NCBI GenBank assembly: GCA_025054935.1
Contig: JANWZD010000002.1
Span: 172,145-236,144, forward strand
Length of the DNA stretch: 64,000 nucleotides
DNA from: Dehalococcoidia bacterium
GTDB taxonomy: Bacteria > Chloroflexota > Dehalococcoidia > SpSt-223
Direction: 5' to 3'
Below, piece by piece: positions 2,025-57,468 of this stretch. Every line of letters starts with the position of its first letter. Position 1 is the first letter of the stretch. The notes under the pieces were generated by a model. That model had not been told where the DNA came from and did not search any database. It saw only the letters and a list, made by a program, of their open reading frames with translations. Both the position numbers and the translations under genes were made by a program.

Positions 2025-2030
2025 CGGCGG

Positions 2031-11277: not shown

Positions 11278-11294
11278 CCGCTACCCCCCGAACC

Positions 11295-27939: not shown

Positions 27940-30276
27940 TTACGGCACCGTGTAGCGCAGAATGACGCCGTCGCCGGCGGCCCACGCCTCGTTCGCGTTC
28001 AGGATCCAGACCGAGCGCAGGTTCGCGTTCGGCGGCGAGACCGACCCGATCCCCGTGTAGAGCGTCCACGTGCCGCCGGAGAGACGCAGGATCGTCAAGT
28101 TGTCGCCGACGGCCCAGCCTTCAGTTGCGGAGAGGAGCGCAACCGCGTTCAGCCGGTTGCCGGTCGGCGAAGGGATCTGGCTCCACGAAGCGCCGTTGAA
28201 GCGCATGATTACGCCTGCATCGCCGACGGCATACGCTTGCCCGAGCGTCGCGCCGGACAGCACCCCTGCCACCCCGTTCAGCGGCACGAGCGCGGTCGCG
28301 ACGGGCTGCCAGACAATCCCGGTCCACTGAAAGATCGAGTTGTCGCCCGGGTCGACCGTTGCATCCGCATTGCCGGAGACGGCGAGCGCGACGGTATCGG
28401 CGAGCGAATGCACGCCGCGGATCGGCGACCCGACCGCAGAGAGCGTGCTCGCGCCAAGGAAGCCCGTGCCGTTCCACGGGTAAGCGCGGCCGAGACTATC
28501 CACCATCCATCCTCGGGTCGCGCTGTGGAGGCTGACGCCGAAGAGATCGACGCCGGGAAGCGGCGCGGGAAGCGGTGCATCGCTCCACGCGCTCCCATTC
28601 CAGCGCTTGGCGGTGCCGTTGCTGCCGACGGCAAGCGCGAGGTTCGGGGCGACGGCGAAGACCGAATGCAGCGTCTCGGAGGTTCCTGCCGCGGTGAGGA
28701 GCCAGCCGTTGATACCGCCTCGAAGCGCCGTTCCCCCATTGCCGACAGCAAAGCCCTCGTTGCTCGACAGCATCGAGATACCGCGCAAGGTGCTGCCGGA
28801 GAACACCTGACGCCAAGTTCCCTGCCCGCTGGGAGGCGGTGTGGGGCACGTCGAGCAGCGAATGATGACGCTCACCGCCTCGATCTGGCGGGAGGCCGGC
28901 GGCGGTCCCTGCTGGCCAACCACGTTCGAGGTGCGCCCGTCCACCCTCGCGACCAGAGCCCGCCCCGCTTGGATGGGAGGCACCGTGAAAGAGAAGTTGC
29001 CGTTGGCATCGACCGTCCCGCTGGCGATCACTTGACCGGTGTCGACGTAGGAGACAGTCACTGGGGTCTGCGGCGTTCCCTGTCCGCTCACAGTCGTCGA
29101 CCCTGGCGTCACCTCGTTCAAGACCGGCCGCGGGTTGAACGCCATGAAGATGAGGAAGTTGTTCGGCCGCTGCCGCCCGACGAACCACATCCACCAGTTG
29201 CCGAATTCATCCTCCACCACCGCGGGGTCGTAGGCGTTGCCGTCGAGAACAGCGTCGTTCGGCAGCGTCATCACGACGCCCCCGTTGAAGCCGTACTTGG
29301 TCCAGTTCACGCCGTCGGTTGAGGTGGCATAGAGGATGCGGCTGGTGTTGGCGGAGTCGTCGCCGCGATACCACATTCGGAAGATCCCGTTGCGGTCTTT
29401 GATCACCATCGGCTCGCCGACGAAATTCGAGTCGGGAGCGCCGGGACCGCCGCGCTCTAGGACGGGGCGATTCCGAATGTTCCAAGTCAAGCCGCCGTCG
29501 AGCGATTCCCCATAGCCGATGGATGTGCGTCCCTCGCTATCGACCGCCGTGAACCAGACTTTATAGACATTGCCGTCTTTCAGCCAGGTGGGGTCGCCGA
29601 CCTCGGCGGCCATGTAGGGAAAGAGGCCGCGGCGGATGACGGGGTCGTCCGGGCGGATTGCGCCGGGGTCGCGGTCGGTCGGCTGAAAGTCGACGAGGGT
29701 GGTGGTGGTGGCGAGGCCGATCTGGGAGACGTTGTTCCTGCGCCCTTCGTAGAGCACCCGATAGCAGCGGCAGTCGCTCGCTCGGTCGTCGATCACCGAC
29801 GGCGCAATCACGCGGCTGTCGAAGCGGCCGGCCCGGGGGTCCATCACCGGGTTTTCGCAGCCGGCGCAGTCGCCGCCGATCACATACTTGCCCCAGACAA
29901 TCCCGTCGCCCGAAATGGCCATGTTCATGTTCGAGTTCGTGTTGCCTGTATCCGGGCATTCGCCGGTGTAGTACATCAAGAAGTTGTACGGTGCCGGGCC
30001 GCCGCCGGGACCCATCCGCGGAAAGGTTGAATTCGGCTGGTAGAGCACCGTCGGGGCGTAGGCGTTGGCGCAGTCGCCTTGGTTGCCCGATTCGCTCGGG
30101 TTGCCCGGAGCGAGCGACGGCCCGCCGTCAGTCGGCAGCCGCGTAAAGACCCCCGGTCTCGTCTGGTAGATCGGCGGCCCCTGCGTATCGGTTGCCCAGG
30201 CCGGGCGCGGCACGCTCATGACGGAGCTGAGCGCCACGGCTGCTGCGAGCAGGAGGGAGGGTAGGACACGAGGCAT
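27940..30276 (-). CDS. secreted multi-domain protein: N-terminal GH43/GH130-like beta-propeller-like region, Ig-like domain, C-terminal Ycf48/BNR-like beta-propeller
   Basis: Signal peptide (MPRVLPSLLLAAAVALSSVMSVPRPAWA). The middle Ig-like segment is VTPGSTTVSGQGTPQTPVTVSYVDTGQVIASGTVDANGNFSFTV. The C-terminal repeats (GTWRQVFSGSTLRGISM..., GTAKRWNGSAWSD..., GVIMRFNGASWSQ...) are typical of Ycf48-like propellers. Confidence 0.7.
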   Translation of the reverse strand: MPRVLPSLLLAAAVALSSVMSVPRPAWATDTQGPPIYQTRPGVFTRLPTDGGPSLAPGNPSESGNQGDCANAYAPTVLYQPNSTFPRMGPGGGPAPYNFLMYYTGECPDTGNTNSNMNMAISGDGIVWGKYVIGGDCAGCENPVMDPRAGRFDSRVIAPSVIDDRASDCRCYRVLYEGRRNNVSQIGLATTTTLVDFQPTDRDPGAIRPDDPVIRRGLFPYMAAEVGDPTWLKDGNVYKVWFTAVDSEGRTSIGYGESLDGGLTWNIRNRPVLERGGPGAPDSNFVGEPMVIKDRNGIFRMWYRGDDSANTSRILYATSTDGVNWTKYGFNGGVVMTLPNDAVLDGNAYDPAVVEDEFGNWWMWFVGRQRPNNFLIFMAFNPRPVLNEVTPGSTTVSGQGTPQTPVTVSYVDTGQVIASGTVDANGNFSFTVPPIQAGRALVARVDGRTSNVVGQQGPPPASRQIEAVSVIIRCSTCPTPPPSGQGTWRQVFSGSTLRGISMLSSNEGFAVGNGGTALRGGINGWLLTAAGTSETLHSVFAVAPNLALAVGSNGTAKRWNGSAWSDAPLPAPLPGVDLFGVSLHSATRGWMVDSLGRAYPWNGTGFLGASTLSAVGSPIRGVHSLADTVALAVSGNADATVDPGDNSIFQWTGIVWQPVATALVPLNGVAGVLSGATLGQAYAVGDAGVIMRFNGASWSQIPSPTGNRLNAVALLSATEGWAVGDNLTILRLSGGTWTLYTGIGSVSPPNANLRSVWILNANEAWAAGDGVILRYTVP

Positions 30277-30483: not shown

Positions 30484-31602
30484 GTGAATGTCGCTATCGA
30501 TGCCCGGCCGCTTTCCGATCGCTTTCCCGGGATCGGCCGCTACTTGGCCGGACTGATCCCTGCCCTGCTCGAGGCGGAGCCGGCGCTTCGTCTCACGCTG
30601 TTCGCCGACCCGGCGGCGCGGGGAGGGCGCCATGACCCCTTTGCGCTCGCGGGCGAGCGGTGCGTCGTTGTGCCGCTTGATGCGCCGATCTTCTCGCTGC
30701 GGGGGCAGCTGCGGGCGGCGCGCGCTATCGACCGCGGGCGCTTCGACCTGCTGCACGCCCCGTACTTTCTCTCCCCGCTCGGCGTGCGGACGCCGGTGGT
30801 CCTGACGATCCACGACCTGATCCCGCTGCACCATCCTGAGATTCTGCCGAGCCGGCTCGCCCGGCTGGTCACGCCCTTCCTTCTCGCCGCGGCCGCGCGG
30901 TCGGCGCGGCGGGTGATTGCGGTGTCGCAGTGGGTCGCCGACGATCTCGTCGCGCGCGGGCTGGCCGACCGGGTGGCGGTCGTGCATCACGCTGCCGACC
31001 AGCTGCTCGCTCGAGCCGCCGCCGAGCGTGACCCGAACTGGCCGCCGCCGCCATACCTCCTTTTCGTTGGCGCCGACAAGCCGTTGAAGAACCTTCCTCT
31101 CGTCGTGCGCGCCTATGCGGCAAGCCGGGTGACGGTGCCGCTCGTCATCGCCGGACCTGCCGACCCACGCCATCGCGCCACGGCGGAGACGATCGCGGCG
31201 CTCGGTCTCGCCGGCCGTGTCCTGATGCTCGGGCCGGTCCCGGAGGAGCGGTTGGTGGCGCTCTACCGGGGCGCGCTCGCGCTGCTCTTCCCCTCGCGCG
31301 CAGAAGGCTTCGGCTTGCCTCCCCTCGAAGCGATGCAGCTCGGCGTGCCGGTCGTCTGCTCGACGGCGATGGCACTGCCGGAGGTCGTCGGCAACGCTGC
31401 GCTGCTCGTTCCCCCCGACGATGAGGCGGGCTGGGCGCGCGCCATCACGCGGATCGTCGAGGATGGAGCGCTGCGCGCTGCGCTTGCCGCGGCCGGGCGA
31501 GCGCGCGCAAAACAGTTCTCCTGGGCAGCGGCCGCCCGCCAGACGCTCGCCGTCTATCGGGAGGCGGCGCGTGGGGAGGCAGCGCGGAGCGCGTTCCCGT
31601 GA
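30484..31602 (+). CDS. glycosyltransferase family 4 (GT-B, GT1-superfamily)
   Basis: GT4 motifs (LLHAPYFLSPLGVRTPVVLTIHDL; LLFPSRAEGFGLPPLEAMQLGVPVV). The start is assigned to GTG 30484; the 63 upstream codons of the track ORF are low-complexity and span a divergent promoter region. Confidence 0.75.
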   Translation: MNVAIDARPLSDRFPGIGRYLAGLIPALLEAEPALRLTLFADPAARGGRHDPFALAGERCVVVPLDAPIFSLRGQLRAARAIDRGRFDLLHAPYFLSPLGVRTPVVLTIHDLIPLHHPEILPSRLARLVTPFLLAAAARSARRVIAVSQWVADDLVARGLADRVAVVHHAADQLLARAAAERDPNWPPPPYLLFVGADKPLKNLPLVVRAYAASRVTVPLVIAGPADPRHRATAETIAALGLAGRVLMLGPVPEERLVALYRGALALLFPSRAEGFGLPPLEAMQLGVPVVCSTAMALPEVVGNAALLVPPDDEAGWARAITRIVEDGALRAALAAAGRARAKQFSWAAAARQTLAVYREAARGEAARSAFP

Positions 31603-32786
31603 CCCCACCCCCGATCGACGTCGTGCATGTCTACAAGGACTTCTGGCCGGTTGTCGGCGGGATCGAGAACCATGTGCGCCGCCTCGCCGCTGGTCTCGCG
31701 CGCGACCCGGCCTTCCGCGTTCGGGTGCTGGTCACGAATACCGGGCGGAAGACGGTGCGGGAGGAGATCGACGGCATTGAGGTGATCAAAGCAGGGCGCC
31801 TCGCGACGGCCGCCTCGACGCCGCTCTCGCTCGCCCTTCCTTGGGAGCTGTCGCGGCTGCGGCCTGACCTGATCCATCTGCACTTTCCCTATCCGGTCGG
31901 CGAGGTGTCGTCTCTGCTTGCAGGCCGGGGCGCTCCGCTGCTCATCAGCTATCACAGCGACATTGTCCGGCAGCGGCGGCTGCTGCGGCTGTATCGTCCT
32001 TTGCTCCGGCGTGTTCTCGAGCGTGCCGATGCGATTATCGTCTCAAACCCGCGCTCTGCGGCGAGCTCGCCGTTTCTGCGCGCCGCGCGCGCCAAGCTCC
32101 GGTTCGTTCCTTTTGGGATCGATCCCGCGCGCTACGCTCTCACGGAGGCGCGGCGGGCGCAGGCGGCGGCGATCCGCGCTGCGCTGCCTGGCCCGATCAC
32201 GCTGTTTGTGGGGGTGCTGCGCTATTACAAGGGGGTCGACGCGCTGATCGACGCAATGCGCTGGGTGCCGGGCACGCTCGTGATCGTCGGCGACGGGCCG
32301 GAGGCAGCGCGGTGGAGGGCCCGAGCGGATGCGATGCCCTACCGCGACCGCATTGTGTTCCGCGGGCGCCTGTCGGACGAAGAGGTGGCGGCGCACTATC
32401 ATGCGGCAGATGTCTTCGCGCTCCCGTCGACGCTGCGGGCAGAGAGCTTCGGGATCGTGCTGATCGAGGCGATGGCCTGCGGAGTGCCGCTCGTCACCAC
32501 GGAGCTCGGCACTGGGACCTCCTATGTGAACATTCACGGTGAGACGGGGATCGTGGTCCCGCCGGGCGACCCGCGCGCTCTCGCCGCTGCCCTTCGGGTG
32601 ATCCTCGACGACCCCGTGCGGCGAAGGCGGTTCGGCGAAGCGGCGCGCCGGCGTCTCGAGCAGCAGTTCAGCGAGACAGCGATGATCGAGCGGATAAAAG
32701 CGCTCTACCGCGAGGTGCTGGCGGCGCGCGCCCGGTGGCGGGGGCGTGCTCCCTTTTCCGCTGAGAGCGAGCGCGACGGTGAATGA
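31599..32786 (+). CDS. glycosyltransferase family 4 (GT-B)
   Basis: GT4 motifs (VVHVYKDFWPVVGGIENHV; FALPSTLRAESFGIVLIEAMACGVPLV). GTGA overlap with the upstream GT4. Confidence 0.8.
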   Translation: MTPPPIDVVHVYKDFWPVVGGIENHVRRLAAGLARDPAFRVRVLVTNTGRKTVREEIDGIEVIKAGRLATAASTPLSLALPWELSRLRPDLIHLHFPYPVGEVSSLLAGRGAPLLISYHSDIVRQRRLLRLYRPLLRRVLERADAIIVSNPRSAASSPFLRAARAKLRFVPFGIDPARYALTEARRAQAAAIRAALPGPITLFVGVLRYYKGVDALIDAMRWVPGTLVIVGDGPEAARWRARADAMPYRDRIVFRGRLSDEEVAAHYHAADVFALPSTLRAESFGIVLIEAMACGVPLVTTELGTGTSYVNIHGETGIVVPPGDPRALAAALRVILDDPVRRRRFGEAARRRLEQQFSETAMIERIKALYREVLAARARWRGRAPFSAESERDGE

Positions 32787-32816
32787 GCTGGAACGCCCCT
32801 TTGATACAATCGAAAC

Positions 32817-33827
32817 ATGCCCTTGGCTTCTGAGGAGCGTGCCGTGACCCTCGGCGGCTCCGGCCGGGCGCTGGTGACAGGCGGCGCCGGCTTTATCGGC
32901 TCTCATCTCGTTGAGCGGCTCCTCGCCGAGGGATGGGAGGTGGTGGTTCTCGACGACTTCTCGACCGGCCGCCGTGCCTGGCTGCCGGGGCACCGCCGGC
33001 TCCTCCTGCACGAAGGCGATGTGCGGGATGCCGCTCTCGTCCGGCGCGCGATGGACGGCTGCTCGGTGGTCTTCCACCTTGCGGCGGTGGTCGGTGTCCG
33101 CCGGGTGGTGGCCGACCCGCTGCGCGCGCTGCAGGTCATTGTCGAGGGAACGGAGCGGGTGCTTGCGGCGGCGCTCGACGCGCAGGCGCGGGTCGTTCTC
33201 GCCTCATCGTCGGAAGTGTACGGCGTGAGCGACGCGGTGCCGTTTGCGCCGGACGGCCGCCGCGTGCTCGGCTCGACCCGCGTTCACCGCTGGGCCTACG
33301 CGACCGCGAAGGCGCTCGATGAGCATCTGCTCTTTGCCTATCGCGAGCATGGCCTGCGCGGGGTGGTCCTGCGCTATTTCAACACGTATGGGCCTCGCCA
33401 AGATGCCGAGGGCTACGCCGGCGTCCTTGCCGCTTTCTGCGACGCTGTCGCGCGCGGACAGCCGATGACGATCCACGGCGATGGCCGTCAGACCCGCTGT
33501 TTCCTCTACGTTGACGATACCGTGCTCGCCACGATCCGTGCTGCAGTCGCTCCCGAGGCAGAGGGAGCGATCCTGAACGTCGGGTCGACGGAGGAGGTGT
33601 CGATCGTCGAGGTGTCGCGCCTTGTGGCGGAGATAGCGGGCGTTCCGCACAATGTCTGCTTCGTTCCGTTCGAAGAGGTGTTCGGCGCCCGCTTCGAAGA
33701 CCCGCGGCGGCGAGTGCCCGAGATTAGCGAGAGTGAGCGGCTGCTCGGCTTCCGGCCGACTGTTTCGCTTCGCGAGGGAATTGCGCGCACGCTCGAATGG
33801 AGAATGCGTCCGAGGGGAAGGGGCTAA
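32817..33827 (+). CDS. NAD-dependent epimerase/dehydratase (extended SDR; UDP-sugar 4-epimerase / UDP-glucuronate decarboxylase-like)
   Basis: TGGAGFIGSH Rossmann motif, YATAKALDE catalytic YxxxK, RYFNTYGPRQ. Confidence 0.85.
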   Translation: MPLASEERAVTLGGSGRALVTGGAGFIGSHLVERLLAEGWEVVVLDDFSTGRRAWLPGHRRLLLHEGDVRDAALVRRAMDGCSVVFHLAAVVGVRRVVADPLRALQVIVEGTERVLAAALDAQARVVLASSSEVYGVSDAVPFAPDGRRVLGSTRVHRWAYATAKALDEHLLFAYREHGLRGVVLRYFNTYGPRQDAEGYAGVLAAFCDAVARGQPMTIHGDGRQTRCFLYVDDTVLATIRAAVAPEAEGAILNVGSTEEVSIVEVSRLVAEIAGVPHNVCFVPFEEVFGARFEDPRRRVPEISESERLLGFRPTVSLREGIARTLEWRMRPRGRG

Positions 33828-33830
33828 GCC

Positions 33831-36593
33831 GTGCCGACGCGATTTGCCGCCCAGCTCGACCGGCTGCTTGAAGCAAGCTGGCTCATGGTCGCGATCGTGG
33901 TTCCCCTCTTCTTCAATGTGTTCAGTTCGCGGGTGTTCGAGCCCGACAAGCTGACCGCCTTCCGCGGGATCATGATCTTTGCGCTTGCCGTCTGGCTGCT
34001 CCGCGAACTCGAGCTGCCCGGCGCGCCGGGCAGCCTGCCGCGCCGCTGGATCGCGGGCTTCAAAGCGAACCCGCTTGCTGGGCCAGTGGCGATTTTGGCG
34101 CTCTCCTACGTCATCTCGACGATCTTTTCGGTTCAGCCGCTCGTCAGTATCTTCGGCTCCTATCAGCGGCTGCAGGGGACGCTGAACAATTTCTTGTACT
34201 TCGCGCTGTTCTTCCTCGTTGCGGCTGGGCTTCGCGATTGGGGCCGTCTTGATCGGCTGATCACGACGTTCATCATCGTTAGCGTGCCGGTCAGCTTGTA
34301 TGGGATGTCGCAGCGGCTCGGCCTCGATCCGCTCCCGTGGGGGGCCGATGTCCAGTCCCGTGTCGCCGGCTCGGCCGGCAACCCGATCTTTCTCGGCGCC
34401 TACCTCATTCTCGTTCTCCCCTTCCTCCTCGCCCGCCTTGTCGATGTGGCGACACGGTTCCGGGCCGGAGCACGCGATGGCCGCACGATCGCGCTGCTTG
34501 CGGCCTACAGCGGGGCGCTGCTCGTTAACCTGATCTGCCTCTACTGGACTGGCAGCCGCGGCCCGTGGATGGGGTTCGCTGCCTCGCTGGTGGCGATGGC
34601 GTTCTTCCTTGGGGTCGCCCTGCGCCGGCGGCTGCTGCTGCTCGCCCCGGTGGCGGGGGTCGTCGCTTTCGTTGGGGTGATGGCCTTTCTCAACTCGCCG
34701 CTTGGGGCGCCGCTGGTCGAGGCGAGCGCCTTCGCGGAGCGGCTTGCCAGCATTGACGACGTGACCACGGGGACGAACCGGGTGCGGATGCTCATCTGGT
34801 TTGGCGACGGGGTGGCCAAAGGGGCTGCCGGCATGGTGACCGACAATCTGTTTCGGACGATCGTCGGCTACGGCCCCGAGACGATGTACGTCGCCTACAA
34901 CCGCTTCTATCCCCCCACCCTCGCTCACTACGAATCGCGGACGGCAACGCCCGACCGTTCCCATAACGATTTGATCGACTTTCTCGTCACGAACGGCGTG
35001 ATCGGTCTCTTCGCCTACTTGCTGATCGTCACGACGTTCTTCAGTCTCGCCTTCCGCTTTGTGCGTGACGCCCCGCCCGGCTATCGCCGGCTGATCGCCG
35101 TGGCTGTGGTCGGCGCGGTTGTCGCCCACCTTGTGGAGGCGCTGCTGGGGATCCCGATCTCGTCAACCCGCACCCATTTCTGGATGATCATGGGCATGGC
35201 GACGGCGCTCCCGGTGCTGCTGGCACCAGCCCCCGCTCCCGCTGCCGCGCCGACCCCCGCAAAGCCCAGTTCTGCCGCGCAAGCGCGCGGCCGGCGCCGG
35301 CGGCCGGAAGGGCGGCCCTCCCCGGCGCCGGCACCGCCGCCGGCGAGTCCTACCTGGCTTGCAGCAGCCGCGTGGGTTGTCGTCACGGTCGTCGTGGTCT
35401 ACCTGCTGTTGTTCCAGCCGCGCCTTGTCCAAGGGCTCGTCGGCCAAGACAGCTTTCCCACGCTCGTTGTGCTCGGCGCGTTCGCGTGGGTCTGGGTCGG
35501 CATCGTTGCGCTCGCCACGGCGCTGCCTCTGCCGCCGAGCGGAACCCTGACCCGCACCAACCGCTCGCTCTGGATGGTTGCTCCGTCGCTCGCTTTCCTG
35601 GTCATCCTCCTTGCGGTCAGCTTCGCGAACCCCATCATCGCCGACATTCGCTTCAAGCAGGCGCAATCGCTCGACCAGATCGGGCGCTTCGACTTGAGCA
35701 TTCCGGTCTATTTGAAGGCGATCGAAGCTGCGCCCGGCGAGGACTTCTATCACTTGTTCCTCGGCCGAGCGTATCTCGAGGCGGCGAAGCGCGCGCCGGA
35801 GCAGGGCGCAGCCGTCGTGCCGCGCACGATGGCCGATCTGCAGCGGTTGGCATCCGTCGCCGGCGTCAGCCGCGAGTCGCTCTACTATGCGAGTAAGGTC
35901 GCGCTCGACCAGGCCTACGCCTTAAGTCCGCTCAACACGGACCATTCGGCGAACCTCGGGCGGCTCCATCGCTTCTGGGCGGAGGCCAGCCCCACCCCCG
36001 AGCTGCGCCGCCAGCGGCTTGAGGAGTCGGACCGCTGGTACGAGAGCGCGCTGCGGCTCAGCCCGAACGCCGCCCATCTCTGGACAGAGTGGGGATTGAC
36101 CAAAGAGGCGCTCGGACAGCCGAACGAGGCGGTCCAGAAGTACGAGCACGCGGCGCGGCTGGACAACCGCTATCTCCCGACCTTCCTGCAGCTAGGCAAT
36201 CTCTACTTGAATCAAGCGAACGCGAAGCTTCAGGAGGGCGACCGCGACGGTGCGGCGCCGCATCTCGAGGCGGCTAAGGGCTACTACCAGCGCGTGATTG
36301 AGCTCGATCCGAACCAGCCGATTGCCCACAGCGCCCTCGGGTTCATCTATAACGCGCAGGGCGATACGCGGGCAGCGATCGAGGCGAACGAGCGCGCCGC
36401 TGCCATTGTCCCGAACGACCTTCCGACGCGCCGCAACCTTGCGCTCCTCTACCGCGAGCTCGCGCTGCAGACGAACGACCCCTCCGCACGAGCAAAAGCG
36501 ATCGAAGAGGCGCGGCTGGCGATGAGCCTCGCCCCGGACAATGAGCGCGTCGCGCTCGCGCAGCTGATCGCCGAACTTGGAGGGCGCCCCTGA
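33831..36593 (+). CDS. O-antigen ligase/polymerase-like (Wzy_C) integral membrane protein fused to C-terminal TPR repeats
   Basis: About 450 aa with more than 10 TM helices and a large periplasmic loop. This is followed by an Ala/Pro-rich linker and a roughly 400-aa TPR region (AYLEAAKRAPEQG...LGNLYLNQANAKLQEG...ALGFIYNAQGDTRAAIE). Confidence 0.8.
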   Translation: MPTRFAAQLDRLLEASWLMVAIVVPLFFNVFSSRVFEPDKLTAFRGIMIFALAVWLLRELELPGAPGSLPRRWIAGFKANPLAGPVAILALSYVISTIFSVQPLVSIFGSYQRLQGTLNNFLYFALFFLVAAGLRDWGRLDRLITTFIIVSVPVSLYGMSQRLGLDPLPWGADVQSRVAGSAGNPIFLGAYLILVLPFLLARLVDVATRFRAGARDGRTIALLAAYSGALLVNLICLYWTGSRGPWMGFAASLVAMAFFLGVALRRRLLLLAPVAGVVAFVGVMAFLNSPLGAPLVEASAFAERLASIDDVTTGTNRVRMLIWFGDGVAKGAAGMVTDNLFRTIVGYGPETMYVAYNRFYPPTLAHYESRTATPDRSHNDLIDFLVTNGVIGLFAYLLIVTTFFSLAFRFVRDAPPGYRRLIAVAVVGAVVAHLVEALLGIPISSTRTHFWMIMGMATALPVLLAPAPAPAAAPTPAKPSSAAQARGRRRRPEGRPSPAPAPPPASPTWLAAAAWVVVTVVVVYLLLFQPRLVQGLVGQDSFPTLVVLGAFAWVWVGIVALATALPLPPSGTLTRTNRSLWMVAPSLAFLVILLAVSFANPIIADIRFKQAQSLDQIGRFDLSIPVYLKAIEAAPGEDFYHLFLGRAYLEAAKRAPEQGAAVVPRTMADLQRLASVAGVSRESLYYASKVALDQAYALSPLNTDHSANLGRLHRFWAEASPTPELRRQRLEESDRWYESALRLSPNAAHLWTEWGLTKEALGQPNEAVQKYEHAARLDNRYLPTFLQLGNLYLNQANAKLQEGDRDGAAPHLEAAKGYYQRVIELDPNQPIAHSALGFIYNAQGDTRAAIEANERAAAIVPNDLPTRRNLALLYRELALQTNDPSARAKAIEEARLAMSLAPDNERVALAQLIAELGGRP

Positions 36594-36598
36594 CGCCG

Positions 36599-36859
36599 GT
36601 GACCATCTATACCCGCGCCGACTCTGCGGATTGCCGCGCGCTCAAGCTGTTCCTCGACGCCCGCGGTGTTCCCTACCGCGAACTGGACGCCCGCCACCCC
36701 GGCGTCCGCCATCAGATGTTCCAGCGCTACGGTGTGCTTGTTGTCCCGATCGTCGTCATCGGCCGGCAGGCGTTCTTCGGCTTTGCCGAGAACCGCGCCG
36801 CAATCGAGCGCGCGCTCCGCGAGGGAGTGCTCAGGCCCACGGAAGAGGACCGTACTTAA
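36599..36859 (+). CDS. glutaredoxin-fold protein with atypical SxxC active-site position
   Basis: 86 aa with thioredoxin-fold landmarks (IYTRADSADCRALKLFLDARGVPYRELD ... VPIVVIGRQAFFGF). SADC occupies the canonical CPYC position. Confidence 0.6.
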   Translation: MTIYTRADSADCRALKLFLDARGVPYRELDARHPGVRHQMFQRYGVLVVPIVVIGRQAFFGFAENRAAIERALREGVLRPTEEDRT

Positions 36860-37697
36860 ACACCCACGCCAGCAGTTCGTCGCTCAGCGCTTTGAGGCGC
36901 CGCCGCTCCTCGTTGGTCGGGCGCTGCGACGACCGGAGCAGCGCTTCGATGGCCGCGATCGCGCGCTGCGCCGGGCTCACCTCCGGGGGCGGCGGCTCGG
37001 CTGCTGGCGCGGCCTCGCGGCGGACGAGCGCGCGCGCTGTTTGCTGGTCGAGGTCGCCCTGCAGGATGCGTTGGCGGATGCGGGCGCGCATCTCGGGCGA
37101 CTTCACCGAGAGCAGACGTTCGGCGGTGGAGACGGCGATCTTGCCGGAGCGCACGGCTTCGCCCAGCTCGGGGTCCTCGTAGACCCGGACGCGGCGGCTG
37201 ACGTAGGAAGGGTCCTTATGGATCTTGCGGGCGAGCTCGCGCACGCCGAAGCCGCGCTGCCGCATCAGGGCGTCGAAGGCTGCTGCTTCTTCCTCCGGCG
37301 GAATGTTCTCGCGCTGGAGGTTCTCAATCAGGGCGGCAACGACCGCCTGCTCTTCATCAAAATCCCGGATCACCGCCGGGATCTCTCGCAGCCCGAGCTG
37401 CTGCGCCGCGCGATAGCGTCGCTCTCCCGAGATGAGGATGAACCCATCTTCGGCACGGCGGACGACAACTGGCTGCAGGAAGCCGACATCTTGGATGCTT
37501 CTCGCAAGCTCTTCGAGAGTGGCCTTGGGAAAACTCTTGCGCGGCTGCTGGGGGTCGGGACGGATCTGGTCGATGGGGACCATCTTCGCGCTCGGGTCGG
37601 GGCGGGTTGCCCGTTCGCCGACGATCGTGAACAGCATGCGGTCGCTCACCTCGGACGCATCGCGGGCAAACGTCGGCTGAACTCGGCTAGACGGCAT
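36831..37697 (-). CDS. parB: chromosome partitioning protein ParB (Spo0J)
   Basis: ParB box ([21 protein letters not shown]) and an HTH region. The ATG at 37697 overlaps the parA stop (ATGCCGTCTAG); the longer track ORF (to 37775) would overlap parA by 89 nt. Confidence 0.85.
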
Positions 37698-38460
37698 AGC
37701 GGACCATCCCCATTCGTTCGAGCAGGGTCTCAGCGAGCGCGCGGTAGGTGGCGGCGAGCTCACTGTTCGAGGCATAGTCGAGCAGGCTGAGGCTGCGCTC
37801 CTGCGCCTCGAGCACTTTCACGGTCTGCCGGATGGGCGGCGCGAGAACAAGGTCGCCGAGCGCGTTGCGCACGTCGGCGAGCAGTTCGCGGTCGTAGAGG
37901 CGGCGCGGGTCGAAGAACGTCGGCAACACGCCGATCAGGTCTAAGGCGGGATTGAGATGGCGGCGGACGGCCGCGATCAGCCCCCGGAGATGGTTCAGGC
38001 CGAGAAGAGGCAGTCGCGCCATCTGAACTGGAACGAGCGCCCAGCGAGCGGCAGCGAGGGCATTGACTGTCAGCAGGCCAAGCGACGGCGGGCAGTCGAT
38101 CAGGACGATCTCCCACTCGGCGCGGTCGGCGAGTTCGTCCCGAAGGATCGTCTCGCGGGCGAGCGCCTGCTGAGCAGCCACCTCCGCTGCGGCGAGGTCG
38201 AGGTGTGCCGGCGCGACGGCAAGGTTCGGCCTGAGCGCGCGGACAATCGCTCCCAGCGAGCGCTCGCGGCTGAGGAGGGCCGCTGTCGACTCGCCGGCGT
38301 CGATCGTCTCGAGCCCCAGCGCCGCGGTCAGGTTTGCTTGCGGGTCAAGGTCGATTAGGAGAACCCGCGCTCCCTGCTCTGCGAACGCCGCGCCCAAGTT
38401 GAGCGCCGTCGTCGTCTTGCCGACGCCCCCTTTCTGATTGGCGATCGCGATCACCACCAC
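37687..38460 (-). CDS. parA: chromosome partitioning ATPase ParA (Soj)
   Basis: Deviant Walker A ([20 protein letters not shown]), 257 aa, immediately upstream of parB. Confidence 0.9.
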
Positions 38461-49264: not shown

Positions 49265-52200
49265 TTATTCCCGGACCTCGAAGCGCGCGCTGCCGCTTCG
49301 GCCCCACACCTCCGGGAAGTACATCAAGCTTGCCCGCGCCGGCGGGACGACGAAGTCGCCGGCCGTCGTCACGCGGACGAGGTAGGAGAACTGGTAGGTT
49401 CCCCGCGGTAGAGCGCGCGCGAAAAGGGCGACCCGGTCATCGCGGATATCGATATGCGAGAAGCGCCAGGCCGATCGCCCGCCTCCTCGCTCGAAGATAC
49501 TCGCCGTCGCAAGGTCGGGGTTCACGGCCTCGGCGCCGGCGAACAACGGGTCGTCCACCACCACGTAGTCGAGGTCGCTCGGGGCGATGATGGTCAGCTG
49601 GACGCGAATGAGGTCGCCGACCCTCGCAGAACGGATCGGGCTTGTGCTGGTCGGGTCAGCGGGCAGGTACTCGCGGGTGATTGCAATCCCCTCCGCGCGC
49701 GGCTCGGCCTGCTCCCCAAGGCGGAAGGTGCGGAGCGACGCCGTGTAATAGAGCCGTCCCGCGGCGCTCGGTAGGCCGCTCGCCTCCCGCTCGAGCACGA
49801 GCCGGTTCGGCGCGTCGAGCAGCAGGTCGCGCACGGGGACAACGAGTGTGCGCGCGCCCGGCGTGTCCTGGGTGACGCGGCCGCTCGCGAGTGCTCGGCC
49901 GTTGAGGGAGACGCGATAGCGATAATCGGGCGACGGCAGAGCAGAGCGAACAGCATAGACAGCAAGCGCGTTCAGCGCGGCGGCGGTGTCGAAGGTGGTG
50001 CCCCACCAGCCGTCGCGCCGCTCGATCATCAGCCAGCGCACGGCCGGGTCAATGAGCGGGCTTTGCGGGTCAGCGGCGAGGAGGGCTTGCAGGACGACTG
50101 CCGTCGATCGGCTCGTTCCGCCGAGTCTGCGTCGGTCGCCGGGGTCGTTCCAGTGGACTCCGGTCGCGCTCCACGTGGCGGTGCCGACAAGTTCGTTCAG
50201 CAGGGTCGCAGTGCGGGCGTCGCCGCGGTCGCCGTTCGCCCGGAAGATGGCGAGGAGGAGGGACGCCTTGGCCCAGTCGGCGAGGGCAGCCCGCCGCTCG
50301 AATAGGGCGTTGAGCGCTCCGGTCGAAGGCCGCCCCGCTTCGGCGAGGACGAAGAGGGCATAGGCGCGGGCGTTGGCATCGTCGGGACTGCCGACGTCGA
50401 CAGGACGCTGCAGCTGCTGCGTCACGGCATCGAGGCCGCGCGCAAGGCTGCTTTCATCGACTGCGTAGCCGGCCTTCTGCGCCCTGATGAGGCCAAAGAC
50501 GGCGTAGGCGGTGAGGAAGGGCTGGCTTGGGTCGCCGCGGAACCAGCCCCAGCCGCCGTCGGTCCGCTGCGCCAGCGCAAGCCGCTGGAGGGCAGCAATA
50601 TTCTGGTCCGCAATCCGGCTGACGAGCTCCGGCGTCAGCGTTCCCGTCGCGCTCAGGACGCGCAGGTAGTCGAGCGAGGAGAGTAGCCGCGAGACGGTTA
50701 CCTCGGTCGGCTCCCACGGGAAGGCGCTCAGTTCGCGGAAGCCGGTTTCTAGGCCGGCGGTGAGTGAGGGAGCGAGTTCGACCGTCAGTTCGCCGAGATT
50801 GGGGTTGACGGGGCTCGGCACCCGGACCGTTTCGACCACTTGGGCGGCGACTTGCCCGCTAGAGGCGACGACCTCGGCGGTCGCGAGCGGATTGACCGGC
50901 AGCGCAATTTCGACGGCGTCGCCGGGGGGGCTGGTCCCGCCGGTGTCGGCGCGGAAACGGAGACGCGCCTCGCCCGGCTGGCCGGCGCTCACCTCCCAGC
51001 GGGCGCTTGCCGTCCCGCGCGCCGGGACGCTCAGCCGCGGCGCCGCGAAGCCGCCAGCCGGCGAGGCGAGATTGCTCACCTCAAGGGTGGCGGTAACCTC
51101 CAGCGGCCGGTCGGTCAGGTTCTGGACGATCGCGCCGACTGTCGCCCGATCGCCGCTGGTCAGGAAGCGCGGCACCACCGGCCGCACGAGGAGGTCCTTC
51201 GTGCTGACGATGTCATGGGTCGCTTGACCGAACTGGGAGTCGCGCGTCACCGCCTTGACAGTCAGCCGCCACGTTGTCAGATTGTCCGGAAGCATGACAT
51301 CGAATGTCGCCTCGCCGTTGCGGTCGGTGACAAGACGGGGGCTCCAGAAGGCGGTATCGGCAAAGCGCGAGCGCACCTCGCGGATCGCGCCGCCGCCTCC
51401 CTTGCCGGCGGCGCGTGAGGCGATGTCGAGGCGGGTCTGCGATGCCGCTAATGTCGCGGCAGTGACGACGCCGAGTCCGCGCTCGCGGTAGAAGCGATCA
51501 AACAGCCACGTCGGCGGCTCGTCGTCGGCGAGCGACAGGACAGCGCGGTCGACGACCGCCGCCGAGAGCTGCGCCTGCACCGGCCGTCCGGCGGCATCGG
51601 TCGCCTTCACCCGGTAGCGGACGGTCTCGCCGGGCTGGTAGCGCGCCTTGTCGCTGCGGATCTCGAGCGTGAGCAGTTTCGCCGAGGCATCCACCCGAAG
51701 ATTGGCGTAGCCGAGCTTGTAGGAAGGCGGCCCCTGGGCGCTGTCGCCGGCAAAGGCGACGACCGAGACGAAAACGTTCGGCAGGTAGTCGGGCTCGACG
51801 GGGATGTCGAGAACGGGGCTGCTGGATGTCAGCGTGACGACGCGGGAGGAGCGCACGCCTTGGCGCTCGATGGTGAGGAGCGCGGTTGAGGTCGCGAACG
51901 GGGTCGGCACGAGCAGCTTCGCGGTCTCGCCCGGCGCGTAGACCGGCTTGTCGAGGACGAGGTCCATCCGGTCGTTGCTCTCCAGCCCCCAGTTGACGAA
52001 CTCGGTTCCGGCAACCCAGAGGAAGGCGACCGTTCGTACCTCGTTGCCGAGTTCATCGCGGCCCGTCGCTTGGATGCGGTAGAGGCCAGGGCGCGGAGGC
52101 GTGAACGCCGCTTGGGCGCGGCCGTTCCTGTCCGTTGTCAGAGTGCGCGCTGCGCCTGGCACCGGCGTGTCCTCGAAGGTCGTGACCCAGACGAGGTCAC

Positions 52201-55057: not shown

Positions 55058-55071
55058 GGCTCGTCTCCCTC

Positions 55072-57468
55072 TTATCTTCCGTCGACCCGAATGCGCCGCT
55101 CATCGGCAGCTACTTCGCTGCCGTCGCGGAGGAGGGCGGCTCGGACGACATGCTCGCCCGGCTCGAGCGTCCACCATCCTTCAGCGGCTCCGAGCGGAGC
55201 GATCGGGATGCCGTTCACGGTGAGGAGAACAGCGCCGCCGGCGGCGGCAGCCCGGACGCGCAGCCGCTGCATCGCCGTCGGCAGCCGCGGCGAGATGACC
55301 AGTTCGGCGCCGTCGTCGGGCGCGACGAGCCGGACGAACCGAGGTGCCTCGTCGCGCTGACCGGTGAGACAGCTCTCAGTCGGCGGCAGGGGGATGCCGC
55401 GCTCCTGCGCCCACGCGAGCGCCGGTGGCGGGACGATCCAGAACAGGCGCTCGCTGACCGGTCCGCGGCAGCCCGGCTCCCACAGCCGGCCGGTCGCGCT
55501 GTCGATCCGGAGGCGCTGGTAGCTCGTCGACGGCTCGCTCGGCTCGCGGCCGGCGAGAAACGGCTCAAGGACGACCCGCGGGCAGTCGGGCGCAGCGCGC
55601 TTGCCGTCCACCTCGCAGACTGCAGCCCAAACAATCCCCGCCGGGACGGGAAATGCCTGCGCCGGCTCGCCGCGCAGCGCCTCGCTGATGAAGTCGCGCC
55701 AGATCGGGGCCGCCCCGGAGATACCGCTCACCTCGCGCATCGGCCGGCCGTCGCTGTTGCCGACCCAGACGCCGACCACCAGCTGCGGCGTGAAGCCGAT
55801 CGTCCAGTTGTCGCGGAAGCGGCTGGTCGTGCCTGTCTTCACGCCGGCCGGACGGGAGAGCGTCAGCGGATTGTTCATGCCGAAGGACAGTTCGCGGGCG
55901 CGGGGGTCGCTCAGCACGTGGGCGACAAGGTAGGCGATTTCCGGGGCGAGCACCTGCCGCGGCGGCGGCCGCTCGATCGCAACGAGCGTCTGCCCTGCGC
56001 TCGATTCGATCCGCAGCAGGTCAGCCGGGGGAGAGAGAAGCCCGCCGTTTGCAAACGCAGCGTACGCTGCCGTCAGGTCGAGCAGCGTCACCTCGCCGCC
56101 GCCGAGGGTGAGGGCGAGGTCGTAGCGGTCAGCGTCGTGCCATGTCGAGATCCCAAGCCGCTGCCCCATCTCGACCAGCGCCGAAACGCCGATCCGGTCG
56201 AGCAGCTGGACGGCAACGACGTTGATCGAGGCGCCGAGCGCGGTCCGGAGGGATATCGGGCCATGATAGTCGTGGTCGTAATTGACGGGGACGAAGGGCT
56301 CGCCGCGGCGGGTTGTGAACGTCGAGCGGACGTCAAAGAACACATCGGCCGGCGCATAGCCGCGCTCGAAGGCGGCAGCGTAGGTGAGCGGCTTGATCGC
56401 CGAGCCGGGCTGGCGCGGTGAGACGGCGACATTCACTTGGCCGTCGATCGCGGGGTTGAAGTAGTCGGCCGAGCCGGCAAGCGCGAGGATGTCCCCCGTT
56501 CGCGGGTCGATGGCGATGAGGGCAGCGTTGGTGACGTCGTGGTTGGCGAGGCGGGCGAGATGGCGCGCGATCGTCCGTTCGGCAAGCTGCTGCAGGCCGG
56601 CGTCGAGCGTCGTGATCACGCGGCTGCCGCCGTGCTGAGCGGCAAGCGCGAGCGCCCGCTCGCGTGTCCCGACCACAAAGTGCGGCGCAACGACCGGCGG
56701 CGCTGACGGCCGAAGCTCGAGCGGTTCGGCGGCGGCGCGTTCCGCCTCGTCCCGGCTGAGCATGCCGCGCCGTGTCATCAGCGTGAGCACGGTCTGGCGC
56801 CGCTCGAGCGCAAGCGCTGGGTCGTCGCGCGGGTCGTATCGCGCGGGGGCTTGGAGCAAGCCAGTGAGAAGAGCCGCTTGGCTGACCGAGAGATCGGACG
56901 CGGCGACGCCGAAGTACGCCCGGCTTGCGGCGTCGATCCCGACGGCGCGAGCGCCGTAGGGGGCGCGGTTGAGGTAGAGGCGGAGGATCTCGTCTTTCGG
57001 GAAGTGGCGGGCGATCTGGAGCGCGAGGGCCAGTTCCCGCGCCTTGCGCCGCAGCGGGGGGTGGGCGAGCGGGTCGTCGCGGAGCAAGGCCTGCCGTGCC
57101 AGCTGCATTTCGATCGTGCTCCCGCCCGACGGCTCGCCGCGCAGCGACTGACCTGCCGCCCGGAGGAGCGCCACGAGATCAACGCCGGGATGCTGGAAGA
57201 AGCGGTGATCTTCGGTCGCGAGGGTCGCCGCCACGACGCTCGGCGCAATTTCATCACGCCTGACCGGCCGGACGCTCCCAACCTCGGTCTCGATCTCGTA
57301 GAGCAGGCGCCCGTTGCGGTCGAGGATGAGGATGGACGCGGGCGGGTCCGCGAGCATGACGGGCGAGGGCAACTCGGCCAGTGCCCAGCGGAAGGCCGCG
57401 ACAGCCGCGACCCCGACGATCGCGAGGGCGAGACCAGGGTGCTGCCATGCTCGCATTGATGCTGACAA
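55072..57468 (-). CDS. pbpC: penicillin-binding protein 1C (bifunctional GT51 transglycosylase / transpeptidase)
   Basis: TM anchor, GT51 motifs (ATLATEDHRFFQHPGVD; GGSTIEMQLAR), transpeptidase SxxK/SxN/KTG context (GSAIKP; KTGTT), and a PbpC-type C-terminal beta-domain. 14 nt upstream of the A2M gene on the same strand. Confidence 0.9.
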   Translation of the reverse strand: MSASMRAWQHPGLALAIVGVAAVAAFRWALAELPSPVMLADPPASILILDRNGRLLYEIETEVGSVRPVRRDEIAPSVVAATLATEDHRFFQHPGVDLVALLRAAGQSLRGEPSGGSTIEMQLARQALLRDDPLAHPPLRRKARELALALQIARHFPKDEILRLYLNRAPYGARAVGIDAASRAYFGVAASDLSVSQAALLTGLLQAPARYDPRDDPALALERRQTVLTLMTRRGMLSRDEAERAAAEPLELRPSAPPVVAPHFVVGTRERALALAAQHGGSRVITTLDAGLQQLAERTIARHLARLANHDVTNAALIAIDPRTGDILALAGSADYFNPAIDGQVNVAVSPRQPGSAIKPLTYAAAFERGYAPADVFFDVRSTFTTRRGEPFVPVNYDHDYHGPISLRTALGASINVVAVQLLDRIGVSALVEMGQRLGISTWHDADRYDLALTLGGGEVTLLDLTAAYAAFANGGLLSPPADLLRIESSAGQTLVAIERPPPRQVLAPEIAYLVAHVLSDPRARELSFGMNNPLTLSRPAGVKTGTTSRFRDNWTIGFTPQLVVGVWVGNSDGRPMREVSGISGAAPIWRDFISEALRGEPAQAFPVPAGIVWAAVCEVDGKRAAPDCPRVVLEPFLAGREPSEPSTSYQRLRIDSATGRLWEPGCRGPVSERLFWIVPPPALAWAQERGIPLPPTESCLTGQRDEAPRFVRLVAPDDGAELVISPRLPTAMQRLRVRAAAAGGAVLLTVNGIPIAPLGAAEGWWTLEPGEHVVRAALLRDGSEVAADERRIRVDGR

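Follow-up and report, generated by a model that had tools for sequence, protein, structure and literature searches.

A TPR-fused WaaL-fold ligase in a five-gene glycan cluster of Chloroflexota

The gene cluster

The window analyzed here is a 64-kb stretch of DNA from a Chloroflexota metagenome-assembled genome (MAG), in which five genes are packed on the + strand across positions 30484-36859. They code, in this order, for two GT4 glycosyltransferases, an extended SDR, a 920-aa protein with Wzy_C and TPR domains and an 86-aa glutaredoxin-fold protein. The first two genes overlap by 4 nt, and the later junctions have spacers of 30, 3 and 5 nt. All five ORFs of the cluster described in the initial annotation were found and their gene families were confirmed by Pfam:

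30484..31602, + strand: GT4a, GT4 family glycosyltransferase, 372 aa, GTG start (Pfam Glycos_transf_1, 2.7e-29; Glyco_transf_4, 2.5e-17)
31599..32786, + strand: GT4b, GT4 family glycosyltransferase, 395 aa (Pfam Glycos_transf_1, 1.3e-40; Glyco_transf_4, 2.5e-20)
32817..33827, + strand: extended SDR nucleotide-sugar epimerase/dehydratase/decarboxylase, 336 aa (Pfam Epimerase, 1.9e-53; GDP_Man_Dehyd, 1.7e-47)
33831..36593, + strand: Wzy_C (WaaL-fold) ligase, 920 aa, extended by three TM helices and a TPR array (Pfam Wzy_C and TPR families)
33831..35228, + strand: 12-helix ligase domain, residues 1-466
34962..35006, + strand: ligase motif H378-N-x9-G389-x-x-G392, where the large outer loop ends
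35229..35621, + strand: predicted cytoplasmic linker rich in Pro/Ala/Arg (residues 467-508), then three TM helices beyond those of the ligase domain (residues 509-597), from the model and hydropathy
35622..36590, + strand: TPR array of ~15 helices, residues 598-920, predicted extracytoplasmic (Pfam TPR families)
36599..36859, + strand: glutaredoxin-fold small protein, 86 aa, with S-A-D-C where C-x-x-C is expected (Pfam Glutaredoxin)
36623..36634, + strand: S9-A10-D11-C12 at the glutaredoxin active-site motif position, read directly from the translation and by comparison with CxxC relatives

Orthologues of all five genes are found in the same order in related genomes, which marks these ORFs as genuine genes rather than accidental open frames in DNA of 68% GC. 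The short spacing (3-5 nt, and the 4-nt overlap) indicates that the five genes are likely co-transcribed here. A scan for promoters and terminators was uninformative, with 0 promoters and with terminator-like sites at chance level. The 3' end of a convergent parB gene (36831-37775, - strand) overlaps the glutaredoxin-like gene by 29 nt. The cluster is an ordinary, already annotated glycan operon of its ligase family, minus the usual priming partner. NCBI already places the 920-aa protein in the O-antigen ligase family, through a MAG entry of identical sequence (100%) called 'O-antigen ligase family protein [Chloroflexota bacterium]'.

GT4a matched no NCBIfam model at or above cutoff, and among solved structures it is closest to generic GT4 enzymes, MshA and PimA for example; orthologues of 363-374 aa occupy the same position in three related loci (L001, L003, L004). 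All NCBIfam matches of GT4b were below cutoff, with stp2, BshA and TuaC at the top, and in 13 of 43 loci a GT4b homologue precedes the ligase gene at a distance of no more than 5 kb. The SDR carries the motifs GGAGFIGSH, SSSEVYG and YATAK, and its best solved relatives are 6wjb/6wj9 (1.6e-49), GalE-type epimerases and the human UDP-glucuronate decarboxylase 4lk3 (1.3e-43). In 21 of 64 loci it is the gene just before the ligase gene, and it is absent from L003.

The operon ends, as initially proposed, with a small thioredoxin/glutaredoxin-fold protein carrying SxxC (S9-A-D-C12). Its match to Pfam Glutaredoxin is marginal (3.9e-5, 24.2 bits against a cutoff of 22.9) and that to the NCBIfam YruB family (2.9e-9) is under cutoff. 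An exhaustive search with this protein gave just 5 cluster representatives at E<=1e-10, which corresponds to a very narrow family, and a word-indexed search gave 2 proteins only. The nearest relatives keep SxxC and remoter ones carry CPDC or CADC; orthologues located right after the ligase gene have SADA (L001), SPAC (L003) and SAEC (L007), the L001 gene having neither cysteine nor an ATG, GTG or TTG start. A redox-active glutaredoxin is improbable because the N-terminal nucleophilic Cys of the CxxC/CxxS motif is replaced by Ser. The gene directly follows the ligase gene in only 3 of 70 loci, all in the window's own subclade. Judged from these sequences, the protein is probably a subclade-specific accessory and not a redox catalyst, outside the core of the pathway.

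Architecture of the ligase

Pfam matched the 920-aa protein to Wzy_C (PF04932; E 7.2e-11, 42.5 bits against a cutoff of 31.7; residues 229-397) and to TPR families (TPR_11, TPR_8, TPR_1, TPR_2 and TPR_12) across residues 604-875. The fusion of both domains was therefore confirmed, with an array of ~320 aa (residues ~598-916) instead of the ~400 aa first estimated. A Pro/Ala/Arg-rich linker and three further TM helices lie between the Wzy_C domain and the array, and in the AlphaFold2 model of the protein (pLDDT 90.1, pTM 0.88) the linker has low pLDDT and the extra helices span residues 510-528, 542-563 and 578-616. Foldseek results for the full-length model were dominated by TPR proteins and a second model, of residues 1-475, was used. 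According to the modelling, the ligase domain has the 12-TM GT-C(B) fold of WaaL. A search of PDB sequences with the full 920-aa protein gave TPR proteins only, and a profile of the N-terminal domain alone gave nothing relevant at E<=10, so there is no sequence-level link to the solved ligases. When 15 helices are considered, with the N-terminus in and the TPR array out, the short loops hold 27 K+R inside and 8 outside, and the invariant polar residues are all in predicted outer loops. As the number of extra helices is odd, the C-terminal TPR domain would be outside, and by the positive-inside rule the array and the catalytic loop probably share the outer face.

The large outer loop before helix 10 ends, as in WaaL (CAZy GT121; Cupriavidus metallidurans 7TPG/7TPJ; E. 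coli), in H-N-x9-G-x-x-G, here H378-N-D-L-I-D-F-L-V-T-N-G389-V-I-G392. H378 is invariant across 96 sequences, likewise D375 and R376, and hhalign sets H378-N379 on E. coli WaaL H338-N339 (E 0.0022, 37 columns, probability 12.8%), compared with E values of 0.38 and 0.44 for the E. coli polymerases WzyE and Wzy(O16). A CAZy survey found His at this position in ligases and Asp or Glu in related polymerases (PMC10920833). Invariant arginines also fall in predicted outer loops of the ligase, R243 in a short one and R319, R342, R370 and R376 in the large one, and are candidates for the role of the two WaaL arginines that bind the pyrophosphate of the lipid donor (R191/R265 in 7TPG, R215/R288 in E. 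coli). Further invariant residues (R34, E37, D39, K40) are in the first outer loop. The proposal of a Wzy_C-type membrane protein was in this way borne out by the PF04932 match above gathering score, the predicted WaaL fold and the ligase-type His motif. A WecA-primed donor pathway, present in relatives, is a further likeness to WaaL. The two differ in that there is no profile-level sequence match and identity in the structural alignment is 17%; our protein is longer by three TM helices and by the 320-aa TPR array, and the gene is outside any core-oligosaccharide locus.

Other family assignments were considered. WaaL sensu stricto was discarded, as no LPS core gene was recognized among the scanned ORFs of the window or in the gene tables of five related loci and the host phylum is reported to be LPS-free. 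IctB (TIGR00947) is the top NCBIfam match (8.4e-16), at 58 bits against a cutoff of 366.4, and was rejected. A Wzy polymerase (inverting clan GT-C1) is improbable given the invariant His in place of Asp/Glu and the lack of Wzx/Wzz homologues with low-sensitivity queries. No match to PglL_A (PF15864) was obtained at E<=0.01. Regarding the TPR array, the best solved matches were consensus TPR proteins and, among natural proteins, the TPR domains of OGT and SPINDLY (SPY), with weak NCBIfam matches to BcsC, PrsT and PilW. Residues 700-711 of the array (P-L-N-T-D-H-S-A-N-L-G-R) include invariant D704, N708, L709 and R711, and P700, L701, N702, T703 and A707 are almost invariant.

Gene neighbourhood in related genomes

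We compared 79 genome loci, all from Chloroflexota. The key new fact is that a WecA-type priming transferase gene lies directly downstream of the ligase gene in 58 of 70 loci, a pair present in at least 58 species across several classes. The downstream protein matches TIGR02380 (7e-39) and shares 29% identity with E. coli WecA. It is followed in 25 of 61 loci by an NDP-sugar 6-dehydrogenase that resembles UDP-ManNAc dehydrogenase, and beyond this point the genes are mixed (lone ABC ATPases, cyclophilins, VTT/DedA, MFS). Upstream, GT4 or SDR genes were found in about half of the loci (21 of 43). In the window's subclade the place of the WecA-type gene is occupied by the glutaredoxin-like gene. 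The five genes, which had been taken as the unit, are thus not what is conserved: the phylum-wide core is the Wzy_C-TPR gene with its WecA-type partner. The locus is bordered by housekeeping genes: parAB in the window, the ATP synthase operon in L005 and valS in L004.

As initially reported, no flippase, priming glycosyltransferase or chain-length regulator was found in the window. This was assessed by a Pfam scan of most ORFs of ~125 aa or longer with coding-like codon-position GC, plus a few competing overlaps, and every reading frame of 55 aa or more was also compared by phmmer with WecA, Wzx and Wzz queries. For Wzx and Wzz these were E. coli WzxE, RfbX and WzzE, which makes for a test of low sensitivity. 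These queries gave no Wzx/Wzz homologue in the 79 loci either. Few glycosyltransferases were detected in the loci, no wall-polymer export genes are conserved in them, and an ABC exporter pair beside L003 is not kept in other loci. A suggested link to GT-C genes at 11-17 kb was not sustained, since only about 9 of the 79 loci have homologues of them at 10 kb or less. No rml genes occur at this locus, the Pfam scan recognized no S-layer gene in the window, and no S-layer or other obvious target gene was recognized as conserved next to the cluster. The gene divergent from the cluster codes for a secreted Big_6 protein, a candidate acceptor; as a conserved acceptor it was rejected, being syntenic solely in the window's subclade. 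The window also encodes peptidoglycan-related proteins (a PASTA kinase, an M23 peptidase and class A PBPs). A literature search on O-antigen ligases or TPR proteins of Chloroflexi/Chloroflexota gave no functional study.

Candidate function and acceptor

We tentatively favor a reading, held with somewhat less than even confidence, in which the cluster assembles a short glycan on undecaprenyl-PP in the cytoplasm and, as the last step, transfers it to an acceptor other than LPS, probably a protein. A WecA-type enzyme would prime undecaprenyl phosphate with HexNAc-1-phosphate; its gene, adjacent in most relatives, would have to be elsewhere in this genome. The two GT4 enzymes would lengthen the glycan, with the SDR helping to supply nucleotide sugars, and the 920-aa WaaL-fold enzyme would move it en bloc onto a hydroxyl acceptor. 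Here the pyrophosphate could be held by the invariant outer-face arginines (R243, and R319, R342, R370 or R376) and His378 could activate the acceptor, in line with the proposal for WaaL, with the TPR array, outside beside the catalytic loop, selecting or presenting it. The enzyme would then be an O-oligosaccharyltransferase of the WsfB/PglL functional type that modifies secreted or surface proteins on Ser, Thr or Tyr. A short glycan fits with the few glycosyltransferases and with the absence of Wzz/Wzx homologues in the 79 loci in a low-sensitivity test. The pathway is incomplete as seen here because neither a priming enzyme nor a flippase is in the 64-kb window.

The acceptor must differ from that of WaaL, since Chloroflexota are reported to lack LPS biosynthesis, and hence lipid A-core, as well as BAM genes (PMC13319060). 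The initial claim of a protein instead of a lipid A-core acceptor is therefore partly supported, lipid A-core being unlikely in a phylum reported LPS-free, and a protein or S-layer acceptor is an inference. In this regard, TPR arrays fused to glycosyltransferases are, to our knowledge, found only in enzymes that modify proteins, and this together with the reported lack of LPS makes Ser/Thr/Tyr of secreted or surface proteins the likeliest acceptors. The WaaL motif cannot tell a protein from a glycolipid acceptor because one WaaL is reported to serve both, in the study that also defined the motif (bioRxiv 10.1101/2022.10.31.514599). In Litorilinea, also of the Chloroflexota, the archaellin carries probable O-glycans at Thr66 and Thr145, the responsible enzyme not being identified (PMC12488501).

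Several known systems resemble parts of this one. The S-layer O-oligosaccharyltransferase WsfB of Paenibacillus alvei reportedly combines Wzy_C with a C-terminal TPR motif, and in WsaB of Geobacillus stearothermophilus the TPR is in a separate protein, WsaA (PMC2943079). By published description, WsfB shares with our ligase this architecture, and both systems share a monoderm host and the clustering of the ligase gene with glycosyltransferases that build a lipid-linked glycan; rml genes, a Gal-1-P priming transferase and a nearby S-layer gene are present in those loci, whereas here none was recognized and the partner in relatives is WecA-type. In PglL and TfpO (PilO), Wzy_C contains the two Arg and one His that are conserved in WaaL as well, and a PglL_A/PglL_B signature flanks it (PMC3643930). 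The en bloc transfer by PglL from undecaprenyl-PP to Ser/Thr of periplasmic or surface proteins is, by analogy, the function proposed here. Unlike PglL, the PglL_A signature (PF15864) and an adjacent pilin or target gene are absent, the host is monoderm or atypical, and a long TPR array and extra helices are present that the descriptions of PglL consulted do not include. Lastly, in OGT and SPINDLY as well, a TPR superhelix is covalently attached to the glycosyltransferase and serves to bind the acceptor protein, and TMTC1-4 are GT-C membrane enzymes with lumenal TPRs. Their catalytic domains and donors (nucleotide sugars in OGT/SPY, dolichol-P-mannose in TMTC) are unrelated, so the resemblance would be one of design only.

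A rather unlikely alternative keeps the WaaL-type en bloc transfer from undecaprenyl-PP and replaces the protein by an envelope glycan or lipid, for which a membrane glycolipid, a secondary wall polymer and the sugars of peptidoglycan are candidates. The extra polysaccharide or protein layers observed outside the Chloroflexota wall would be formed in part by the product, and docking on wall-synthesis proteins or stem peptides would be the task of the TPR array. The conservation of the gene pair across classes, among housekeeping genes, suits a core envelope component over a variable surface antigen, and a WecA-type partner with a UDP-ManNAc-dehydrogenase-like enzyme is also seen in ECA, teichuronic acid and wall-polymer linkage units. 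The peptidoglycan-related genes of the window agree with such a role, and the CAZy survey raises the possibility that Gram-positive GT121 ligases join capsule to peptidoglycan (PMC10920833). Against this, Chloroflexi reportedly have LCP transferases (PMC7831098), which are the wall-polymer ligases known so far, so a second route need not exist; the absence of conserved wall-polymer export genes from the loci and the protein-modifying role of the TPR-fused glycosyltransferases that we know of also speak against it.

It is quite improbable that the enzyme is a Wzy-type polymerase which joins lipid-linked repeats into a teichuronic-acid-like or exopolysaccharide polymer, the TPR array being a built-in scaffold or chain-length device. 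Pfam Wzy_C also includes polymerases, sub-threshold matches relate GT4b to TuaC and the relatives' dehydrogenase to TuaD, both of teichuronic acid synthesis, and a separate Wzz would be unnecessary if the array did that job. Furthermore, TPR arrays serve as polysaccharide-export scaffolds too, as in BcsC, which together with PrsT and PilW is among the weak matches. However, the position of the ligase His holds an invariant His and not the Asp/Glu reported for polymerases of the same clan, no similarity to E. coli Wzy or WzyE was detectable, the low-sensitivity queries gave no Wzx/Wzz homologue in any of the 79 loci, and a ligase would still be required, with none nearby. Least probable is that the five genes are not one system, with the glutaredoxin-like gene and possibly the SDR as mere neighbours and the Wzy_C-like protein a non-glycosyltransferase, as once proposed for the IctB 'bicarbonate transporter' relatives: the 3/70 occurrence and the degenerate L001 copy of the former, the missing SDR of L003 and the top-ranking IctB match would agree with it, but that match is far under cutoff, the catalytic-type residues are invariant in 96 sequences, the gene is strongly linked throughout the phylum to those for WecA, GT4 and sugar-nucleotide enzymes, and the gene spacing points to co-transcription of all five.

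Returning to en bloc transfer to a non-LPS acceptor, a broader and somewhat doubtful extension is that the Wzy_C-TPR/WecA pair is phylum-wide envelope-decorating machinery, either for general protein O-glycosylation, with the TPR array reading acceptors, or as an LCP-independent WaaL-type wall ligase. Chloroflexota envelopes are debated and poorly understood: they are reported to have neither LPS nor BAM, yet some look layered or diderm-like. The protein version could explain O-glycans such as those of the Litorilinea archaellin, and in the wall-ligase version a conserved glycan fixed to the wall could build the outer layers that give the diderm look; either one would imply a distinct WaaL-fold ligase family with a built-in acceptor-recognition domain in an LPS-free phylum. 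A WaaL-fold ligase with a predicted extracytoplasmic TPR array and a WecA neighbour is thus a testable candidate for surface glycosylation in Chloroflexota and, as a natural Wzy_C enzyme with a fused putative acceptor-binding module, may interest glycoengineers. Additionally, the ligase has forms of ~1200 aa in Anaerolineae, in which the TPR part reaches up to about 600 aa.

Gene cluster and architecture of the ligase

The five-gene glycan cluster that the initial annotation had proposed at 30484-36859 was confirmed, because the open reading frames lie on the + strand and their Pfam families are those described. GC content is 64-71% across the entire window, and an NCBIfam scan of the five cluster proteins returned no model at cutoff.

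Genes of the glycan cluster (window positions, strand, assignment)
30484-31602, +, GT4a: GT4-type glycosyltransferase (Pfam Glycos_transf_1, 2.7e-29)
31599-32786, +, GT4b: Glycos_transf_1 (1.3e-40), 4-nt overlap with GT4a
32817-33827, +, extended SDR: Pfam Epimerase (1.9e-53), after a 30-nt gap
33831-36593, +, ligase: Pfam Wzy_C (7.2e-11, above the gathering score) and many TPR families, after a 3-nt gap
36599-36859, +, Grx-like protein: Pfam Glutaredoxin (3.9e-5, marginal), after a 5-nt gap

The last gene overlaps by 29 nt the 3' end of a convergent parB, which is followed by parA. GT4a and GT4b look like generic retaining enzymes of the GT4 family. Among solved structures, the best matches to the SDR were 6wjb/6wj9 (1.6e-49), which we take to be the UDP-GlcNAc 4-epimerase PelX, together with GalE-type epimerases and human UDP-glucuronate decarboxylase (1.3e-43). 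Its sequence carries the motifs SSSEVYG and YATAK, and the Glu after the catalytic Ser is reminiscent of decarboxylases and dehydratases.

The full-length AlphaFold2 model of the 920-aa ligase, built with 96 homologues, was confident (pLDDT 90.1, pTM 0.88). It begins with 12 helices (1-466), which a disordered linker rich in Pro, Ala and Arg separates from three more helices (509-597); about 15 TPR-like helices (598-916) follow. Pfam and the model thus agree on the annotated Wzy_C-TPR fusion, although the TPR part spans ~320 aa instead of ~400 aa and does not directly follow the Wzy_C membrane part, since three extra membrane helices come before it. Only TPR proteins were recovered when the whole model served as the fold-search query, and residues 1-475 were therefore modelled separately (pLDDT 89.9). 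At the sequence level the ligase was linked to no solved structure, even by profile search.

The residues invariant among the 96 homologues include R34, E37, D39 and K40 in the first loop, R113, Q115, D166, W170 and S242-R243-G244-P245, and further R319, R342, E350, R370 and D375-R376-x-H378. Within the TPR array, the stretch P-L-N-T-D-H-S-A-N-L-G-R (residues 700-711) is conserved. In a profile alignment with E. coli WaaL, in which the aligned stretch is short, H378 pairs with H338, and comparison of the same profile with two E. coli polymerases gave E values of 0.38 (WzyE) and 0.44 (Wzy). Fold and motif place the protein among ligases of the Wzy_C/GT121 kind. A topology of 15 helices that starts from a cytoplasmic N-terminus puts 27 Lys and Arg residues of the short loops on the inner side and 8 on the outer, and all invariant polar residues fall in outer loops; this predicts an extracytoplasmic TPR array next to the catalytic loop.

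Distribution and gene neighbourhood in Chloroflexota

An NCBI MAG protein with 100% identity to the ligase, encoded on a contig of 736 kb, is annotated as "O-antigen ligase family protein [Chloroflexota bacterium]", and the nearest relatives (81-86%) belong to Dehalococcoidia MAGs from hot springs. A pattern scan using one genome per species found a relative in at least 578 species, and all 79 kept loci belong to Chloroflexota (Dehalococcoidia, Anaerolineae, Caldilineae, Thermoflexales and Chloroflexia). The family has two forms, one of ~900 aa and one of ~1200 aa with a longer TPR array. The Wzy_C+TPR architecture is already annotated and widespread, and our literature search found no functional study of such a protein in Chloroflexota. 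One close relative, P0041 from a KatS3mg061 MAG, is 74% identical to the ligase across the N-terminal 41% of the query and has only 576 aa, with Wzy_C present and TPR absent; truncation, splitting or a frameshift may account for this, or the protein may naturally lack TPRs.

Open reading frames were called in 85 loci, and the five cluster proteins together with the WecA-like protein and dehydrogenase of locus L004 served as queries against them. A WecA/MraY-family gene lies immediately downstream of the ligase gene in 58 of the 70 loci with at least 1 kb of downstream sequence, followed by an NDP-sugar 6-dehydrogenase in 25 of 61 assessable loci. The SDR is immediately upstream in 21/64 assessable loci, and GT4a, GT4b or the SDR occurs on the same strand within 5 kb upstream in 21/43. 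The order GT4a-GT4b-SDR-ligase-WecA(-dehydrogenase) is repeated in distant members (for example L004, L013, L015 and L041), and the loci are set among housekeeping genes: the window has parAB, L004 has valS and L005 has the ATP synthase operon. The WecA-family partner matches TIGR02380 (7e-39, below cutoff) with 29% identity to E. coli WecA, and the dehydrogenase matches TIGR03026 (1e-129), its closest relatives being UDP-ManNAc and UDP-GlcNAc dehydrogenases. Across the family, the usual partner of the ligase is a priming enzyme of the WecA type, and this connects the ligase with a glycan carried on undecaprenyl-PP; the phylum-wide ligase-WecA gene pair is the useful new observation.

In the subclade of the window (the window, L001/L008, L007 and L003), the Grx-like gene fills the slot after the ligase gene and no WecA-type gene occurs within 10 kb in these loci. 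As had been annotated, the window has no priming glycosyltransferase: a WecA-type gene was absent across its 64 kb.

In nine Anaerolineae-type loci (L031:13027-15006, L028, L038, L040, L049, L051, L063, L075 and L083), named as Anaerolineales, Anaerolinea sp., Anaerolineae or Chloroflexota/Chloroflexia MAGs, the WecA-like frame is ~600-660 codons long. In L031, the sole one scanned with Pfam and NCBIfam, it joins a WecA domain to the non-catalytic N-terminal half (TIGR03025 positions 2-222) of a large polyprenyl-phosphate glycosylphosphotransferase. Two loci carry a VTT/DedA-domain gene a few kb from the ligase-WecA pair (L054:15944-16525 and L006:21887-22513). A role in recycling undecaprenyl phosphate has been proposed for some DedA proteins, and this neighbour would fit a lipid-linked pathway, two loci being too few to count as evidence.

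Proposed pathway and acceptor

In the pathway that we propose, undecaprenyl phosphate would be primed by a WecA-type enzyme, and the glycan would be extended by the two GT4 enzymes, exported by a putative flippase and transferred en bloc by the WaaL-fold enzyme. Outer-face arginines would hold the pyrophosphate, His378 would activate the acceptor and the TPR array would choose it.

TPR arrays fused to glycosyltransferases such as OGT, SPY and TMTC bind protein substrates, and the TPR array of the ligase matches those of OGT and SPY. For this reason we tentatively favour a protein acceptor, and also because LPS and BAM genes are reported absent from Chloroflexota (PMC13319060), because WsfB, which serves a monoderm as its S-layer O-oligosaccharyltransferase, is described as a Wzy_C enzyme carrying a TPR motif (PMC2943079), and because the archaellin of one Chloroflexota member carries probable O-glycans, at Thr66 and Thr145, to which no enzyme has been assigned (PMC12488501). 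The locus lacks an LPS context, so the ligase is not a WaaL in the strict sense; it differs from PglL, whose Pfam signature is absent, and from WsfB-type loci in its gene context. One WaaL is reported to serve both LPS and a protein (bioRxiv 10.1101/2022.10.31.514599).

Transfer to a wall glycan or a lipid appears rather unlikely, yet the strong conservation and the WecA and dehydrogenase partners would suit a conserved wall-linked glycan equally well; LCP transferases occur in Chloroflexota (PMC7831098). That the large protein is a polymerase is improbable, because it has His at a position that, in the CAZy survey, is His in ligases and Asp or Glu in related inverting polymerases (PMC10920833). 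We consider it very improbable that the cluster is not one system or that the large protein is not a transferase.

The Grx-like protein and other genes of the window

The 86-aa Grx-like protein has S-A-D-C where glutaredoxins carry C-x-x-C; its orthologues have SPAC, SAEC or SADC, and more distant relatives CPDC or CADC. When 1.84 billion representatives were searched exhaustively, only five clusters reached E<=1e-10. The protein is a narrow lineage-specific YruB/NrdH-like offshoot that has lost the nucleophilic cysteine, and we take it to be an accessory, neither a redox catalyst nor a core pathway member. The orthologue at L001:12750-13011 (identical to L008; KatS3mg060 MAG) reads SADA, a motif without cysteine. 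No ATG, GTG or TTG start lies near its conserved N-terminus, where the codon is ATC, and the original gene call was a 45-aa fragment; this gene may be decaying, or its start may be unconventional.

Divergent from the cluster, at 27940-30276 (-), is a gene for a 778-aa secreted protein with a signal peptide, a Big_6 Ig-like domain and beta-propeller-like C-terminal repeats. Its synteny with the cluster is confined to the subclade of the window (L001, L007, L009 and, in a shorter form, L003), and it could act locally as an acceptor or in glycan processing.

The suggested link to the GT-C genes at 11-17 kb was unsupported, since only about 9 of 79 loci have homologues of them within 10 kb of the ligase gene. 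That region (9613-16891, +) encodes a Ser/Thr kinase with an ARC6-like IMS domain and then two tandem GT-C membrane proteins of ~940 aa (TMEM260-like PF11028, 2e-23; PMT_2, 8e-9), both with no Pfam match in the C-terminal ~600 aa. Four sizeable reading frames with coding-like codon-position GC likewise had no Pfam match: 2-1120 (+), 1243-2115 (+), 2372-4051 (-) and 62725-63999 (-). Lastly, a bacterial alpha-2-macroglobulin of 1944 aa (49265-57474, -; Big_5 x4, MG2, A2M_BRD, A2M and bMG10) is encoded directly downstream of a PBP1C-like gene (Transgly, Transpeptidase and BiPBP_C), with a 28-nt overlap. The A2M-PbpC pairing is known from diderm bacteria, and here it occurs in a Chloroflexota genome.
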